Positions 2,448 through 9,646 of a DNA stretch of 64,000 nucleotides are shown here, one piece after another (positions within the stretch are counted from its first letter, which is position 1; every line of letters begins with the position of its first letter). This stretch comes from Shigella phage A2: sequence record OP197928. The stretch is one strand, 5' to 3'. The translations under genes were made by a program, and so were the position numbers. The notes beneath the pieces were generated by a model. The model was given only the letters and a program-made list of their open reading frames with translations, was not told where the DNA came from and searched no databases.

Positions 2448-4267
2448 TACTGGCTCATCCATTCTTTACGAAGGTCAGCATTATCTCCCATGAGCATTTC
2501 AAAAAGCTCTTTCCAGTTCTCAGGAAGTTTAACAACATCATATACTGGGTTTTGAATCATCTCACGATATTCAGATTTTTCCAAAGAGCCAAGTCCCTTA
2601 ATATAACGGATGCTATGTTTAGGTAGAGCATCTTTGGCACTCTCATATTCAGCAACTGTATAAAACCATTCTTGTTTTTTACCGACCTGAGCGATGATTA
2701 CAGGAGTTTTGACGAAGCGAATTCTTCCTTGTTCAAACAGTTCTGGCCAATTACTAAAAAATCCGAGCAGAGAAGGATAAATGCTTCCTAGACCATCATG
2801 GTCAGCATCAGTCATAATAGCAATATTATGATAATTCAAGTTTTCAGCCTTTTCACCAAGAACTAATCCAGTGATTGCGCAAATATCAAACAGTTCTTTG
2901 TTTTTAAGCATATCAGCATATGACATACCCCAGCTGTTAAGAACTTTACCGCGCAATGGATAACCACCATGAAGTTCTTTATCGCGAACATCAATAAGAT
3001 ATCCGATAGCAGAATCACCCTCAGTCAAGAAAAGAGTAGTGTCAGCATCTTTACCACAAAGATTCGCTTTAATATGTTTATGAACCTTAGCTTTAGAAGC
3101 CTTTTTAGCTGCTTTAGTTTCTGCTGCCTTTTCTGCTGCCAATTTACGAGCCAAGGCAGCTTCAATAATTGGCATTAAAATTGCTTCATTATTTAGAATA
3201 GCGCGTGAAATCTTTTTAGCATCAAGCTGAATATGACTACGAATTTCGCCAAATGGAGAAGTCAAACGCTCTTTAGTTTGAGAATCAAATCGCATGTTTT
3301 TCATATCACGGACAAACATAACGATAGTCAAACATTCTTTGACACGTGCTTTAGTTACATCAATTTTGAACTTACGTTTGATTTGTGGAATAAGGTCTTC
3401 ACAAATATCATCCATAACACAGTCAATGTGATGGCCACCATTCTTAGTGTGAATGTTATTCACGTAAGTTAATTGACGAAATCCATCCGGTGAACGACCA
3501 ACCGCAATAGAACAATTTTCTTGTTCTTGAACAATAGCATGTTCATCATACTGTCGTGCATATTTCTTAAAATTGCCCTGAACCTTTTTACCGTTAAAGG
3601 TAAATTGAATATCAGGATAAACAACAGCAAGTGTCTGGAGACGATCTAGTGTAATGTCAAGATAAACTTGGGACAGCTCATTAGTTTCAAATGACATAAA
3701 ATCTGGAATGAAAGTAACACGAGTTCCTTTCCATTTTCCAGGAATATCTTCCCATGATTTATTTTCCATGCCGTTTGAACAACGAACTACAATATTATTT
3801 TGACCGTCGCCAGTTTCACCGACAAACATCACAGAAAAAATGTTAGTTAAACTAGAACCAACACCATTCATACCGCCAGTGACGCGTTCTTTATCATCAC
3901 CAAAGTTACCACCTGCTTTTGGAATAGTCCAGGCAGCAACAGGACCAGGAATTTCTTCACCAGTAGGTGTTTTAACCATCGCTTGTGGAATACCGCGACC
4001 ATTATCTTCAACTGTTACTTGATTATTTTTAATAGTAACATTAATTTTATTTGCGAATTTAAACTTAGTACGAATACCTTCATCTACTGAGTTATCGATA
4101 ATTTCATCAATAAGCTTAACAAGACCAGGTACATACTGAACACTTTCCCATTTACCAAACAGAAAGCGCTCATGCATTTCATTAGCTGAAGAGCCAATGT
4201 ACATGCCGCTACGCTTTTTGATATGTTCAATATCGCTCAGAATTTTAATTTCATTCTTAATCATCAC
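2447..4267 (-). CDS. 39: DNA topoisomerase II large (ATPase) subunit, single 606-aa ORF equivalent to T4 gp39 plus gp60
   Basis: GHKL ATPase motifs (IDNSVDEG, VEDNGRGIP, GGMNGVGSS); uninterrupted reading frame through the region that is split in T4. Confidence 0.9.
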   Translation of the reverse strand: MMIKNEIKILSDIEHIKKRSGMYIGSSANEMHERFLFGKWESVQYVPGLVKLIDEIIDNSVDEGIRTKFKFANKINVTIKNNQVTVEDNGRGIPQAMVKTPTGEEIPGPVAAWTIPKAGGNFGDDKERVTGGMNGVGSSLTNIFSVMFVGETGDGQNNIVVRCSNGMENKSWEDIPGKWKGTRVTFIPDFMSFETNELSQVYLDITLDRLQTLAVVYPDIQFTFNGKKVQGNFKKYARQYDEHAIVQEQENCSIAVGRSPDGFRQLTYVNNIHTKNGGHHIDCVMDDICEDLIPQIKRKFKIDVTKARVKECLTIVMFVRDMKNMRFDSQTKERLTSPFGEIRSHIQLDAKKISRAILNNEAILMPIIEAALARKLAAEKAAETKAAKKASKAKVHKHIKANLCGKDADTTLFLTEGDSAIGYLIDVRDKELHGGYPLRGKVLNSWGMSYADMLKNKELFDICAITGLVLGEKAENLNYHNIAIMTDADHDGLGSIYPSLLGFFSNWPELFEQGRIRFVKTPVIIAQVGKKQEWFYTVAEYESAKDALPKHSIRYIKGLGSLEKSEYREMIQNPVYDVVKLPENWKELFEMLMGDNADLRKEWMSQ

Positions 4268-5152: not shown

Positions 5153-5578
5153 TTATTCCTTAAAATGAGCTTTCAGCATCTGATACAAGGACCATGCCTG
5201 TTCATTATTTTCAATAGTAACTTTCATGACAGGAAATTCTGTGAAATCTTCTATTTGTTCTTGCTCTTGCTCTTCCTGCTCTTGCTCTTCAGCTGCCTGA
5301 TATGGATTTTCCACTTCATCAAAGAACTCGGCTTCGTTAGTAGAGAGCCAGATAAAGTTTTCGTCAAGGATATCACCATGTGTTGCATATCCAATTGTGC
5401 CAGTAAATGACATAATTTTAGTAGGACGACCAAGATGGTCAACATCTAAAATTTTAAAAGGATGCATACCTAAACGTCGTGCATAAATTCCGTTATCAGT
5501 ATGGTCTTTAATAAAAGCTTCTTGAGCTTGTTTATTTTTAAATTGATACCATTTATTAACTTCAAATTTAATAGCCAT
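5153..5578 (-). CDS. hypothetical protein with acidic EQ-repeat tract, 141 aa
   Basis: minus-strand ORF; low-complexity [12 protein letters not shown] segment. Confidence 0.5.
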
Positions 5579-5793
5579 TAATAAATTTCCTTCCAGTAAG
5601 TTGTGCCATCTTCAGTAATTTCACGAAATACACCGTAAATTGGTTGTTTATCACCAACCTTTTCATACACATAAACCGAAGTCAAGTGAGTAAACTTAAC
5701 GGTATGTTCCTTTTGAACTACTACCAAATCTGGATCGAATAATACATCTTCAAATTCGTCATTAGTGCAGTTCTGAACAATTTTACGTTTCAT
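5578..5793 (-). CDS. hypothetical protein, 71 aa
   Basis: minus-strand ORF, start/stop overlap with neighbours. Confidence 0.45.
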
Positions 5794-5806
5794 TACAATT
5801 TCCTCA

Positions 5807-6076
5807 TTAATTGAACAGTGGAGCGATGCGTTTCAGAAGAGTAGCAGCACCTTTAGCGAATTTTACATCATGAAAAACAGTTTCTTCTTCCGTTACAACA
5901 CGAGCTTTAATGTTTTCACAATCCCAATTTTTGCGAACAATCTTCAAAAGCTGCAGTAAATCTTTACATTCAGCAATATCGATAACACATCCACGAGAAT
6001 CTTCCATTATCGCACGATAACCGTAAGCCATACCATAATAATTGAAAGATTGCTCGATGATAATTAAATTTTCCAT
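5807..6076 (-). CDS. hypothetical protein, 89 aa
   Basis: minus-strand ORF downstream of promoter/inverted repeat at 6101-6149. Confidence 0.45.
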   Translation of the reverse strand: MENLIIIEQSFNYYGMAYGYRAIMEDSRGCVIDIAECKDLLQLLKIVRKNWDCENIKARVVTEEETVFHDVKFAKGAATLLKRIAPLFN

Positions 6077-6119
6077 TTTATTCTCCGAGTTGTTTTCTGT
6101 ATCAGTAGTTGATATTGAT

Positions 6120-6149
6120 ATAGTACCATAATCAACTACTGATGTATAT
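6120..6149 (-). promoter_or_regulatory. early promoter with degenerate -35 (ATATAC) and -10 TACTAT, inside 13-bp inverted repeat
   Basis: tggTACTAT -10 block as in other early promoters; AT-rich UP element. Confidence 0.4.
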
Positions 6150-6183
6150 AGTTTTATGAAAAAATTTTAAACTTTATGCAAAT

Positions 6184-6603
6184 TTATGCTAAAGCTGCTT
6201 CGCACCATTTTTTAATTTGGAATTCAGGAACTACCATGAACTGGCCTGCAAAAACAATATTGTAGAGCTTGACACCATCTTCTACCCAACGGTCCGAAAT
6301 AAAACCAGCGACTTGATTCGTTGTCCATGGAGTTCCATCTGTTGCCGCCGCAATTGTGAATTTATGGTCTTTTACAACTAAAACTGAAGAACAAAGTTTC
6401 CATTTAAATGCGCTTTCTTCTGGCTCAATGAATTGGCTTGAGACATAACCAATGTTACCATCAGCGTCACGAACTTTAACCTCGTTACGACCAAAAACTG
6501 GATCACTTACAGAAAGAACTTCAACCAACTTTCCTGCAACTTTAGAACGAGAAGCAACGGATACATATACGTAATCACCAGTAGAGAGATTTACAATATT
6601 CAT
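6184..6603 (-). CDS. hypothetical protein, paralog family member 1 (139 aa)
   Basis: shares C-terminal motif GFISDRWVEDGVKLYNIVFAGQF with the next two genes. Confidence 0.55.
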   Translation of the reverse strand: MNIVNLSTGDYVYVSVASRSKVAGKLVEVLSVSDPVFGRNEVKVRDADGNIGYVSSQFIEPEESAFKWKLCSSVLVVKDHKFTIAAATDGTPWTTNQVAGFISDRWVEDGVKLYNIVFAGQFMVVPEFQIKKWCEAALA

Positions 6604-6615
6604 AATAATAATTCC

Positions 6616-7089
6616 TTAAGCTTTACGAGGAGAAGCATAACGAGTGATTTCAGATTCTTCAACAACCCGGAAGTCACCTAAGAATACGATATTGTATAGC
6701 TTTTTACCGTCTTCAATCCATTGGTCTGTGATAAAGCCACACATCCTATCAGTTTTACTTGGACCAGCGAAATCATCAATATAATCGAATTCTTCATCAG
6801 TTACAAATTCAACGCCTTTACACAACGCCCATTTAAATTGTGCATTAGACTCAGTGGATTCAACTTCTTCAACAGAAGCAAAATGAGAGCTAACACGAGT
6901 TTCCAGAAATTTAGGACTTACGTAAGCGTACTGAGTTTCAGTTTTTCCAGAACTAGGAATGATTCGAACTTTAACTTCTATAACACGACCAGTACCATTA
7001 GTACGAAGTCCTACCACTTCAACTAGACGACCTGCAGCTTTAGAACGAGATGCAGACGATACACGCTTAATTTCACCGATAGTAATCAT
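6616..7089 (-). CDS. hypothetical protein, paralog family member 2 (157 aa)
   Basis: motif GFITDQWIEDGKKLYNIVFLGDF; N-terminal SRSKAAGRLVEV shared with member 1. Confidence 0.55.
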   Translation of the reverse strand: MITIGEIKRVSSASRSKAAGRLVEVVGLRTNGTGRVIEVKVRIIPSSGKTETQYAYVSPKFLETRVSSHFASVEEVESTESNAQFKWALCKGVEFVTDEEFDYIDDFAGPSKTDRMCGFITDQWIEDGKKLYNIVFLGDFRVVEESEITRYASPRKA

Positions 7090-7133
7090 AATTTTTCTCT
7101 CTTTGTTGTTAAGATTTATTCTCCATGAGAGCC

Positions 7134-7161
7134 ATTATAACAGGCTCTCTATAAAGTAAAC
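7134..7161 (-). promoter_or_regulatory. early promoter
   Basis: reverse complement GTTTACtttatagagagcctgtTATAAT. Confidence 0.5.
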
Positions 7162-7656
7162 TTAATTAAGGATATTAATTACTGCACTACGTGGAACTAC
7201 ACTAAAATCACCTGCATGAACAACGTTCAGAAGTTCAACACCGTCTTCAATCCACTGATCAGTTACCCATCCACTCACTGGACCTGCGAACGGACGTCGA
7301 ATTGAAACAGCTTTACACAACAAATCAGTAGGCTCAATAGGCTTAACCAGAGTACCGTACATACAAGCGATATCCATATCAATACAGATGTCTTTAACGG
7401 GTTCTACTTCTTCAATCAACAGTTCAAAGTCGGTGCTTGGAAGGGCGGTAGTAGAAATTGTACCGTATGAATTTTTAATTTCTAAGAATAACCAAGGGCC
7501 TTCAGCTTGTTTGATGAAGTTAACAATAGTGAAACTATTACCTTGAGTGGCGCCTAAAATTTCACAAAACTTTTCATAAGCTCGCACTGAAGCACCATAC
7601 CAGTTGATTTGCTTTTCGTCTTTCAGGATGTAAGTAGCTGTAGTACTGATATTCAT
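7162..7656 (-). CDS. hypothetical protein, paralog family member 3 (164 aa)
   Basis: motif GWVTDQWIEDGVELLNVVHAGDF. Confidence 0.55.
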   Translation of the reverse strand: MNISTTATYILKDEKQINWYGASVRAYEKFCEILGATQGNSFTIVNFIKQAEGPWLFLEIKNSYGTISTTALPSTDFELLIEEVEPVKDICIDMDIACMYGTLVKPIEPTDLLCKAVSIRRPFAGPVSGWVTDQWIEDGVELLNVVHAGDFSVVPRSAVINILN

Positions 7657-7668
7657 GATGTTTTCCCC

Positions 7669-8172
7669 TTAATCTAAGGTAATAAAGCCTTTTAATTCGG
7701 CATGTGACTTGCGGAACATTACTTGATGACCGCCAATGATAACTTGGTCATCAGGTACTTCGTATACAGCGAGATAAAATCCTTTAGAAGCTAATTCTTC
7801 ACGCTCTTCTCGTGTGAACCATCTCATCATATCATATTCGCTAGCGAAAGCAAAATGATAAAGAGCTATAAACCATCCTGGAATATAGTGATCTACGCCT
7901 ACATATTCTTCTTTCTCAAAGTTAGTATTAATTGCTATATTAGCATTTTTAACTAATAATTTGTCTTCGTGCGGAAGAGGAATTCTTTTATTATCATTAC
8001 TATGATGCATAAAATTAGGTCTGTCATAACCTACGTGTAATAACCACTCTTCGCTCCATGAATCCATTATACTCCTGTATGGCGTTATCTGAACACAAAG
8101 ATTTCGACGTATTGTTATAGCATCTTCATAATTAAGAATACTAAAAGATGATTCAACACGATAAATTTTCAT
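7669..8172 (-). CDS. hypothetical protein, 167 aa (start moved to internal ATG downstream of promoter)
   Basis: ATG at 8170-8172 with GAGGA SD; track start lies upstream of the early promoter. Confidence 0.5.
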   Translation of the reverse strand: MKIYRVESSFSILNYEDAITIRRNLCVQITPYRSIMDSWSEEWLLHVGYDRPNFMHHSNDNKRIPLPHEDKLLVKNANIAINTNFEKEEYVGVDHYIPGWFIALYHFAFASEYDMMRWFTREEREELASKGFYLAVYEVPDDQVIIGGHQVMFRKSHAELKGFITLD

Positions 8173-8199
8173 TTTATTATCCTCAGTAGCTATGGTGTT

Positions 8200-8229
8200 A
8201 TAATACCACAACTAACCGAGGAAGTAAAC
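8200..8229 (-). promoter_or_regulatory. early promoter
   Basis: reverse complement GTTTACttcctcggttagttgtggTATTAT. Confidence 0.55.
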
Positions 8230-8235
8230 AACTTT

Positions 8236-8919
8236 TTATCGTTTTGTTGGAAGAGAAAGAGGATCGCACTCTTCCTCTGACGGAGCATCTTCAAGACCCA
8301 TAGCATATCGCAAAGCATACTTCATCATCAGGATGTCTTTCGCACAGTCATGAATAGAATCATGTGCAACGAATCCATCTAAAGTTCCCTTTGGAAGAGG
8401 ACATGTGGTCATATCACGAACAAGCAGAAGTGCTTCAATTCTAGTACGAATATCACGTTGATTCCAGAATTTACAAGGTTCTAACTTAAACGTATCAAGC
8501 TCATTCTCGGAAACGCCGTTAAGACGTTGAATATCGCGAATGAGATCGACTAAAATTGGAAAATCAAACGACATTCCACGGCACCAGCCTTGAGATTTCC
8601 AAGGATCGATATTATGCGCATTGATGTAATCATTAAATTTTGCAATACCATCGATAGTGCTTACATCTTCATCTGATGGCGCAATATTTTTTCGAGCTTC
8701 AGGAGATTGATTCTTCCACCATTCGATAGTGCTTTTAGTAAAAAGACGATGTCCTTTTTGACTTTTTAAGTCAAATTTAATTTTAATCCCACGTGAAACT
8801 AGTTCATCGAATGTTTCAACAACTTCTGGGTTAGGGTCAAAAGCAATTACAGCCAAATCAATAACAGCTGCTTTTTCACCGCTTCCCATTGTTTCAAAAT
8901 CTATAATAAAATCAAACAT
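8236..8919 (-). CDS. dexA: exonuclease A (DEDD-type 3'-5' exonuclease), 227 aa
   Basis: 227 aa, N-terminal FDFIIDFETMG exonuclease motif; matches T4 DexA as recalled. Confidence 0.85.
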   Translation of the reverse strand: MFDFIIDFETMGSGEKAAVIDLAVIAFDPNPEVVETFDELVSRGIKIKFDLKSQKGHRLFTKSTIEWWKNQSPEARKNIAPSDEDVSTIDGIAKFNDYINAHNIDPWKSQGWCRGMSFDFPILVDLIRDIQRLNGVSENELDTFKLEPCKFWNQRDIRTRIEALLLVRDMTTCPLPKGTLDGFVAHDSIHDCAKDILMMKYALRYAMGLEDAPSEEECDPLSLPTKR

Positions 8920-9161
8920 TAAATTTTCCTCGCTAAATCACGAATTTGACCTACAGTATAGTCTTGAATATAAACTTTATTAATAGGCTCATCAATAAAT
9001 TTTGCCATAGATTCAATGTCTTTTTGTATTTCTTCAAGACTGTATACTATCTTTAAAGCTTTTTCGCGAGTAGTAATATTTTCAGGACCCTGATTTTCTT
9101 CAATGACAGCTTTAACATTTGTCATAAGAGATTTAAATTGGTACCAACTTAATTCAATCAT
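8919..9161 (-). CDS. hypothetical small protein, 80 aa, paralog of next gene
   Basis: ATG at 9159-9161 with SD; C-terminal LEEIQKDI...DYTVGQI resembles neighbour. Confidence 0.45.
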   Translation of the reverse strand: MIELSWYQFKSLMTNVKAVIEENQGPENITTREKALKIVYSLEEIQKDIESMAKFIDEPINKVYIQDYTVGQIRDLARKI

Positions 9162-9399
9162 TAATAATCGCCTCATAAAGATAGCTAATTTCGCCTAAAA
9201 CATAATCACTGATTGTAACAGTTTTCACTTCGCCACAAAAGAATTCTAACGCAATTAAATCTCGTTCAATTTCTTCTAATTGAAGCATTAACTTTCCAGA
9301 TTCAATTTTTACGTTTCTACGATTTTTACTATAAGCTAATTCATAAATTTCGCTAACTTTATCTTGAAGCAGATAAAACTGGTCTTTAGTTATTTCCAC
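9154..9399 (-). CDS. hypothetical small protein, about 81 aa (probable GTG start)
   Basis: GTG at 9397-9399 preceded by GAGGAAG; LEEIERDL...DYVLGEI motif. Confidence 0.4.
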   Translation of the reverse strand: MEITKDQFYLLQDKVSEIYELAYSKNRRNVKIESGKLMLQLEEIERDLIALEFFCGEVKTVTISDYVLGEISYLYEAIIND

Positions 9400-9646
9400 G
9401 AATAGCTTCCTCAAATTTAATTAGTAATTTACAGATACTTTCATCTAGTGTAATTACCGTATCTGTATTACTGTGATATGATTGTTTTTCAATTCGTTTA
9501 ATTGCTAATATAGTATCACTTATAAGATAAAGCTTATGAAGGAGCTCAGCTCCTGTTACCATAACATCGAGATTATCTTGCTTATTAGTATGCTTCCTTA
9601 TACCATCTATTAGACGATTTAAATATTTTGAATTGATGTTAATCAT
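9386..9646 (-). CDS. hypothetical small protein, 86 aa
   Basis: ATG with GAGGCT SD directly downstream of dda. Confidence 0.45.
   Translation of the reverse strand: MININSKYLNRLIDGIRKHTNKQDNLDVMVTGAELLHKLYLISDTILAIKRIEKQSYHSNTDTVITLDESICKLLIKFEEAIRGNN

Follow-up and report, generated by a model that had tools for sequence, protein, structure and literature searches.

The motB paralog cluster of Shigella phage A2 and its shared C-terminal domain

MotB of phage T4 was characterised by Patterson-West et al. 2018 (PMC6070864) and in a later study of Hinton's group (Viruses 2021;13:84; PMC7827196). This early protein has a tight, sequence-independent affinity for DNA, whether unmodified or carrying glucosyl-hydroxymethylcytosine. 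H-NS and StpA co-purify with it and the DNase I footprints of H-NS are altered; on its overexpression 75 host genes are up-regulated, about one third of them belonging to the H-NS regulon, and the protein is toxic to E. coli and doubles burst size (PMC6070864; PMC7827196). It has been described that MotB and MotB.1 have a conserved C-terminal domain in common while their N-terminal domains differ, possibly as a result of duplication (PMC7827196, 2021). The same study sorted MotB homologs into four categories and reported multi-copy genomes, among them RB69 with two motB genes, one motB.1 and a 29-amino acid (aa) remnant. The N-terminal domain of MotB.1 has since been described as LSm-like, in a family with GoF and Frd.2 (PMC12152347, 2025). 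Here, three adjacent genes encoding proteins of 139, 157 and 164 aa in a stretch of 64,000 nucleotides of Shigella phage A2 (sequence record OP197928; the whole stretch is referred to as the window) are compared with these systems.

By sequence comparison, the window is that of a Tequatrovirus, T4-like and of the RB51/KRT47 type, and the three genes are motB.1 (164 aa), motB (157 aa) and a second, shorter motB paralog (139 aa, hereafter ORF010c) of the early non-essential region between dexA and cef (Table 1). The genes correspond exactly to minus-strand open reading frames (ORFs), as the original prediction had them. Their identification follows from the near-identity of the region to annotated relatives, with the same gene order and annotations, and from family matches of the proteins. 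Region 5800-8300 is 99.1% identical to Shigella phage KRT47, 98.9% to phages Aplg8, Sf23 and teqhad, and 94.4% to RB51 and RB68. Every gene in the cluster part of the window lies on the minus strand (ORF listing), the order of transcription being dexA, motB.2, motB.1, motB, ORF010c, ORF009c and cef, as in RB51 and Aplg8; at this region T4 has motB and motB.1 but lacks ORF010c and ORF009c. All three proteins score above the curated cut-off (25 bits) of the Pfam motB family (PF17613), with 72.1 bits for ORF010c, 139.6 bits for MotB and 35.0 bits for MotB.1. Among PHROGs, the ORF010c protein and MotB belong to phrog_1671 (MotB-like transcriptional regulator) and MotB.1 to phrog_2333 (unknown function), and these two groups match each other within the C-terminal domain.

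The similarity among the three proteins goes far beyond chance, the significance of the shared motifs having been set as the point on which their relationship could fail. BLASTP aligned the ORF010c protein and MotB over their full length (E=6e-29, 39% identity), MotB and MotB.1 over the C-terminal 42 residues only (E=7e-12), and the ORF010c protein and MotB.1 over the C-terminal 29 residues only (E=6e-11). Smith-Waterman scores compared with 1000 shuffles lay 36.7, 18.1 and 15.7 standard deviations out, respectively. The C-terminal motif previously noted in all three was found at residues 100-125 (ORF010c), 118-143 (MotB) and 129-154 (MotB.1), and the consensus core of the shared domain reads G[FW][IV][ST]D[QR]W[IV]EDG..L.N.V..G.F.VV. 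No further occurrence of D[RQ]W[VI]EDG was found in a six-frame translation of the 64-kb window. The core is recognisable at the DNA level also, as three 38-nt copies of 68-76% identity (repeat search, family D1). The N-terminal SRSK[VA]AG[KR]LVEV motif matches the ORF010c protein and MotB only, again in agreement with the earlier description, and the middle portions do diverge: the linker is of variable length in MotB, predicted to be disordered in MotB.1 and almost absent from the ORF010c protein.

A tandem triplication of one gene had been proposed for this locus. Paralogy was borne out, triplication was not: MotB and the ORF010c protein are duplicates over their full length, both possessing a KOW/SH3-like N-terminal domain with SRSKxAG followed by the C-terminal domain, a layout not present in MotB.1, which has in common with them only the C-terminal domain of about 55 aa. 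In profile-profile comparisons, the MotB-type and MotB.1-type C-terminal domains matched with an hhalign probability of 98.9% (E 2e-17), while no homology was detectable between the N-terminal domains of MotB and MotB.1 (probability 0.3%). This last value also led to rejection, at the sequence level, of the MotB.1 N-terminal domain as a diverged KOW domain, which would have rescued a true triplication. The arrangement is thus better described as duplication plus domain recombination. The cluster would have arisen by an old tandem duplication (motB and ORF010c) together with domain recombination (motB.1), and recombination at the conserved core would keep rearranging it. The identity of the three genes and this domain logic are, taken jointly, held with high confidence.

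The observation made from the sequence was therefore correct and its interpretation partly right, for a family which has a Pfam entry and whose paralogy and domain swapping are published. As these have been in print since 2021, with Table S4 of PMC7827196 listing RB51ORF010 (YP_002853965.1, the 139-aa protein of the window) and RB69ORF010c as MotB homologs, the finding itself is already known. The additions made here are modest: an SH3/Tudor-like barrel model for the C-terminal domain, natural mosaics between paralogs, and a truncation of motB.1 in the T4 reference. For work on T4 early genes, the practical points are the modelled fold of the C-terminal domain, the presence of a second, acidic MotB paralog in 207 of the 773 MotB-bearing T4-like phage records, roughly one in four, and the probability that experiments based on the T4 reference motB.1 were done with a protein that lacks the conserved domain.

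The C-terminal domain common to the three proteins is small and all-beta, and its models show an SH3/Tudor-like barrel, not an OB-fold. HHpred had placed that of MotB in the cold-shock-like OB family (PMC7827196); in such a fold a helix would lie between strands 3 and 4 of a five-stranded barrel, and CspA or the C-terminal domain of eIF5A would be among the structural neighbours, a combination that the modelled domain did not show. AlphaFold2, run with family alignments, predicted two five-stranded beta domains for the ORF010c protein (predicted local distance difference test score, pLDDT, 87.5; predicted template modelling score 0.76). For MotB.1 it predicted two beta domains (pLDDT 79.9) with a linker, residues 85-108, of pLDDT below 50. 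The BFVD fold neighbours that were named and had E values of at most 0.001 were T4-like phage proteins, several of them called transcriptional regulator or KOW domain-containing protein. Tandem SH3-like barrel proteins (53BP1 tandem Tudor, Spt5 KOW6-KOW7, KIN17 SH3-like tandem, NusG KOW) resemble the family in fold only, at 9-23% identity, with no sequence-level homology and no sign of methyl-lysine cages or of ribosome or RNA polymerase contacts. The N- and C-terminal barrels of MotB were also considered as diverged copies of each other, which was rejected (hhalign probability 0.6-2.6%).

Natural mosaics between the paralogs indicate that the conserved core acts as a recombination site. A 163-aa protein found on five contigs (P0028) is identical to T4 MotB at 92 of 94 positions up to FKWKL, then to the C-terminal domain of ORF010c at 68 of 69, and ends in a T4-like tail; the gene for it stands alone in the slot, with a 181-aa MotB.1-type gene on one side and ORF009c on the other (L013 3001-3492, L014 2199-2690, L015 37-528). 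In a second protein (P0031; L016 555-1073), MotB passes into the tail of ORF010c with the switch exactly at the WVEDG core. The single MotB of T4 was considered as a simple fusion of the two paralogs of the window; this was not obvious by eye, the clear mosaics being those above. A 43-aa ORF (P0240) was also observed in which the N-terminus of MotB.2 (MKIYRVESSFSIL.YED) is joined directly to the tail of MotB.1 (GVELLNVVHAGDFSVVPRSAVVAILN); it looks like a deletion remnant akin to the 29-aa RB69 peptide of PMC7827196.

The MotB.1-type C-terminal domain (DPTDLL...GWVTDQWIEDGVELLNVVHAGDFSVVPRSAV) is almost invariant in proteins with no fewer than four different N-terminal arrangements: an LSm-like type A (143-169 aa), a type B (177-183 aa; hhalign probability of A against B 54%), a doubled form (245-250 aa) and a KOW-like MotB N-terminal domain (145-149 aa, e.g. 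Enterobacter phage ZX14). The trio motB.1, motB and ORF010c is retained in Mosigvirus phage SHSML-52-1, in phiE142 (classified as Carettavirus) and in RB51-type Tequatrovirus phages; AV118 and JK45 are without motB.1. A MotB-family match was found in 773 GenBank phage records, 207 of which carry an ORF010c ortholog at 80% identity or more; the other 566 match the ORF010c protein at below 60% only, consistent with MotB proper. MotB.1 was matched in 739 records, over most of its length in 308, and the lower-ranked records sampled have the C-terminal domain alone in common. Spread of this domain family beyond T4-like phages was considered and rejected: an exhaustive hidden Markov model search with the three C-terminal domains gave only 27 clusters (50% identity) among 1.84 billion proteins, and only three loci were found in IMG/VR.

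In the T4 reference genome (AF158101.6 / NC_000866.4), the W-I-E-D-G codons of motB.1 contain a single additional G (ATGGATTGGAAGATGG vs ATGGATTGAAGATGG), which truncates the protein to 119 aa. The site lies at about 3303-3310, minus strand, of the T4 locus examined (L003; NC_000866.4 4000-10500) and is homologous to window positions 7246-7260. The extra G occurs in these two records only. It is absent from 13 others, 11 of them named T4 or T4T (T4T HM137666, KJ477684, KJ477685, KJ477686, MT984581, MZ375356, OL964735, OL964745, OZ035787, OZ209023 and OZ209057) plus RB55 and RB59. In the two records that were opened (MT984581 and T4T), the motB.1 coding sequence is annotated as 432 nt, giving 143 aa with a complete C-terminal domain, and this 143-aa sequence is present on 256 contigs. 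The authors of PMC12152347 had their motB.1 expression gene synthesised, cloned the amber-mutant constructs from NC_000866.4 and gave MotB.1 as a 13.8-kDa monomer. That mass fits the 119-aa form, so that the MotB.1 assayed there with a negative result may have been truncated and lacking the conserved domain.

MotB of the window resembles T4 MotB (NP_049626; PF17613, PHROG 1671) in genomic slot, two-domain layout and the SRSKAAG and DQW[IV]EDG..LYN motifs; RB51-type and T4 MotB are listed as 45.96% identical (Table S4, PMC7827196). It differs in its linker and in having an acidic C-terminal domain, that of T4 being mildly basic. The window protein has a net charge of +7 in the N-terminal domain (isoelectric point, pI, 10.7) and -5 in the C-terminal domain. 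The ORF010c protein is identical to RB51 YP_002853965.1, so that no sequence-level difference separates it from the RB51ncORF010c / RB69ORF010c type ('similar to motB') in its RB51 form; compared with MotB, it lacks both the linker and the basic charge. It and MotB.1 are acidic throughout, with overall pI values of 5.4 and 4.5. MotB.1 matches PHROG 2333 over residues 1-164 (E 1e-82), its Pfam motB match being limited to residues 84-159 (profile positions 78-153). It is 95% identical to a protein of phage SF and about 46-55% identical over full length to the T4-type 143-aa protein. With T4 MotB.1 (NP_049627; PHROG 2333) it shares the slot directly upstream of motB, the N-terminal family and the C-terminal domain; unlike it, it is 164 aa long, with an additional DMDIACMYGTLVKP segment in the linker. 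Within this disordered linker, a motif D[MF]D[IV]..[MT]Y....KP was observed (residues 93-106; window 7339-7380). The same motif stands at or near the N-terminus of 180-aa and 250-aa family members (P0138, P0142, P0133), as a mobile short linear motif.

A host-interaction function, suggested from the sequence alone, fits the published biology of MotB, which binds host and phage DNA and co-purifies with H-NS and StpA (PMC6070864, PMC7827196). MotB of the window would act as T4 MotB does, through its strongly basic N-terminal domain: given the charges of its two domains and the acidity of its two relatives, MotB most likely binds DNA mainly via the KOW-like head. The shared C-terminal domain would be a common SH3/Tudor-like module for which docking or oligomerisation is more likely than a role as the main DNA-binding surface. 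The acidic ORF010c protein and MotB.1 would put different N-terminal heads on this module, their functions having diverged within the same pathway. Such a division of labour between the domains is put forward tentatively, at less than an even chance. A fuller form of the proposal is more speculative and rather unlikely to hold in all its parts. In it, the C-terminal domain would be no OB-fold DNA binder but a docking or oligomerisation module bringing interchangeable heads (basic KOW, acidic KOW, LSm-like A and B) to one nucleoid target, for example H-NS/StpA filaments or MotB itself, and the ORF010c protein and MotB.1 would modulate or antagonise MotB. If that were true, the published negatives for T4 MotB.1 would be uninformative, as the synthetic gene apparently encoded the frameshift-truncated form without the module.

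An alternative is that all three proteins are nucleoid-associated DNA binders through the C-terminal domain as an OB-fold, the paralogs being partly redundant and raising dosage or broadening DNA preference. This is the structural reading in print, based on the cold-shock-like HHpred assignment. No other part is shared by every member, and within MotB.1 none is more conserved (ratio of nonsynonymous to synonymous substitution rates, dN/dS, 0.10); in T4 MotB the domain is slightly basic. We regard this alternative as doubtful. It is also conceivable, if improbable, that MotB.1 and possibly the ORF010c protein act on RNA rather than DNA via their LSm- and KOW-like N-terminal domains, an activity of the kind suggested for the GoF/MotB.1/Frd.2 group: the N-terminal fold of MotB.1 has been described as LSm-like (PMC12152347), KOW and LSm domains often bind RNA, and the acidity of both proteins makes them unlikely non-specific DNA binders.

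The original prediction had favoured a diversifying paralog family of a kind typical for host interaction or exclusion. On such a reading the family would be under diversifying selection, in an arms race with the defences of the host or in the service of superinfection exclusion. The locus does lie in a non-essential, mosaic early region, in which only 42 of 686 related phage records cover at least 80% of the 2.5-kb query; RB51-type and T4 MotB differ to the extent given above, and N-terminal domains are swapped among family members. The dN/dS check points the other way. Pairwise Nei-Gojobori estimates among five to nine orthologs, a small sample, gave 0.13 and 0.14 for the N- and C-terminal domains of ORF010c, 0.29 for each of those of MotB, and 0.28 and 0.10 for those of MotB.1. 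All six folded domains thus lie at 0.10-0.29, under purifying selection, and diversifying selection is not supported. Of the linkers, that of MotB.1 gave 0.25, and the indel-rich linker of MotB, near neutral at 0.96, is the sole segment near 1. The near-invariance of the MotB.1-type C-terminal domain across architectures is likewise at odds with diversification. Nothing points to exclusion, as no membrane segment or other known exclusion feature was identified and the published phenotype concerns nucleoid/H-NS biology. The arms-race reading is accordingly considered highly improbable; the locus varies by allele replacement, mosaicism and recombination, not by positive selection.

Table 1. Features of the motB cluster and neighbouring genes in the window (all on the minus strand)
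Feature	Position	Strand	Remarks
dexA	8236-8919	minus	comparison with annotated RB51, Aplg8 and T4 records
motB.2	7669 to about 8172	minus	comparison with annotated RB51, Aplg8 and T4 records
motB.1, 164 aa	7162-7656	minus	orthologous gene annotated motB.1 in RB51 and Aplg8
motB.1 N-terminal domain, residues 1-84	7405-7656	minus	
motB.1 predicted disordered linker, residues 85-108	7333-7404	minus	
motB.1 shared C-terminal domain, residues 109-164	7165-7332	minus	
core DNA copy 3 (motB.1)	7240-7277	minus	repeat family D1, 76% identical to reference copy
candidate early-promoter-like element, GTTTACT-15 nt-TATAAT	7134-7161	minus	in the 72-nt motB.1-motB spacer, read from sequence
motB, 157 aa	6616-7089	minus	annotated motB in RB51 and Aplg8; PF17613 match full-length; PHROG 1671 E 3e-67
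motB basic KOW-like N-terminal domain, residues 1-62	6904-7089	minus	
motB acidic variable linker, residues 63-84	6838-6903	minus	
motB C-terminal domain, residues 85-157	6619-6837	minus	
core DNA copy 2 (motB)	6706-6743	minus	repeat family D1, reference copy; inferred crossover site in natural fusion P0031
motB/ORF010c junction, 12 nt	6604-6615	minus	motB stop codon overlaps Shine-Dalgarno (TAAGGA); repeat family D5
ORF010c, second MotB paralog, 139 aa, RB51ncORF010c / RB69ORF010c type	6184-6603	minus	Pfam motB 72 bits; PHROG 1671 E 1e-50
ORF010c KOW-like N-terminal domain, residues 1-60	6424-6603	minus	almost no linker after
ORF010c C-terminal domain, residues 65-139	6187-6411	minus	
core DNA copy 1 (ORF010c), encodes ..SDRWVEDG..	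6274-6311	minus	repeat family D1, 68% identical to reference copy
ORF009c	5807-6076	minus	comparison with annotated RB51, Aplg8 and T4 records
cef	5578-5793	minus	comparison with annotated RB51, Aplg8 and T4 records

The overlap of the motB stop codon with the Shine-Dalgarno sequence of ORF010c suggests that the two genes are co-transcribed and their translation coupled. The motB.2/motB.1 junction (7657-7668) is built in the same way, with 12 nt and a stop codon overlapping the Shine-Dalgarno sequence. The candidate promoter element upstream of motB has a 15-nt spacing, short for sigma-70, and aligns with GTTTACA-17 nt-TATAAT in T4 and Mosigvirus-type loci. A better early-promoter-like site, GTTTACT-17 nt-TATTAT with TG, lies upstream of motB.2 (8228-8200, minus strand). 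The TTG start of motB.2 called mechanically at 8211 falls within this site; translation more probably begins at the ATG at 8172 (MKIYRVESS..., 167 aa), which is the start given in the Aplg8 and RB51 annotations. A generic sigma-70 scan was uninformative (18 sites against 12.2 expected), and its match at 7112-7085, overlapping the start codon of motB, was judged spurious.

Two inverted repeats were observed on the minus strand. One, between ORF010c and ORF009c (6101-6143), has 20-nt arms of 85% complementarity and a 3-nt loop. The other, upstream of motB (7127-7149), forms a 7-bp stem, GAGAGCC/GGCTCTC, around TATAAT. At the same place T4 has GGGACC/GGTCCC, which looks compensatory, while in Mosigvirus-type loci the stem is deleted. 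RNAalifold gave no consensus structure for this hairpin at the -10 element (-0.47 kcal/mol), and a conserved RNA hairpin was rejected on these two grounds.

Another overlapping run of small paralogs was noted beyond dexA on the minus strand: dexA.1, dexA.2 and RB14ncORF017c (85, 86 and 86 aa; 8919-9176, 9154-9414 and 9386-9646). The products of dexA.1 and dexA.2 are similar by BLASTP (E 8e-8, 29% identity) and both match phrog_1700, and those of dexA.2 and ORF017c both match phrog_5263. The genes corresponding to this run in locus L013 match Pfam PF26837 (Phage_T4_Y00H_G).

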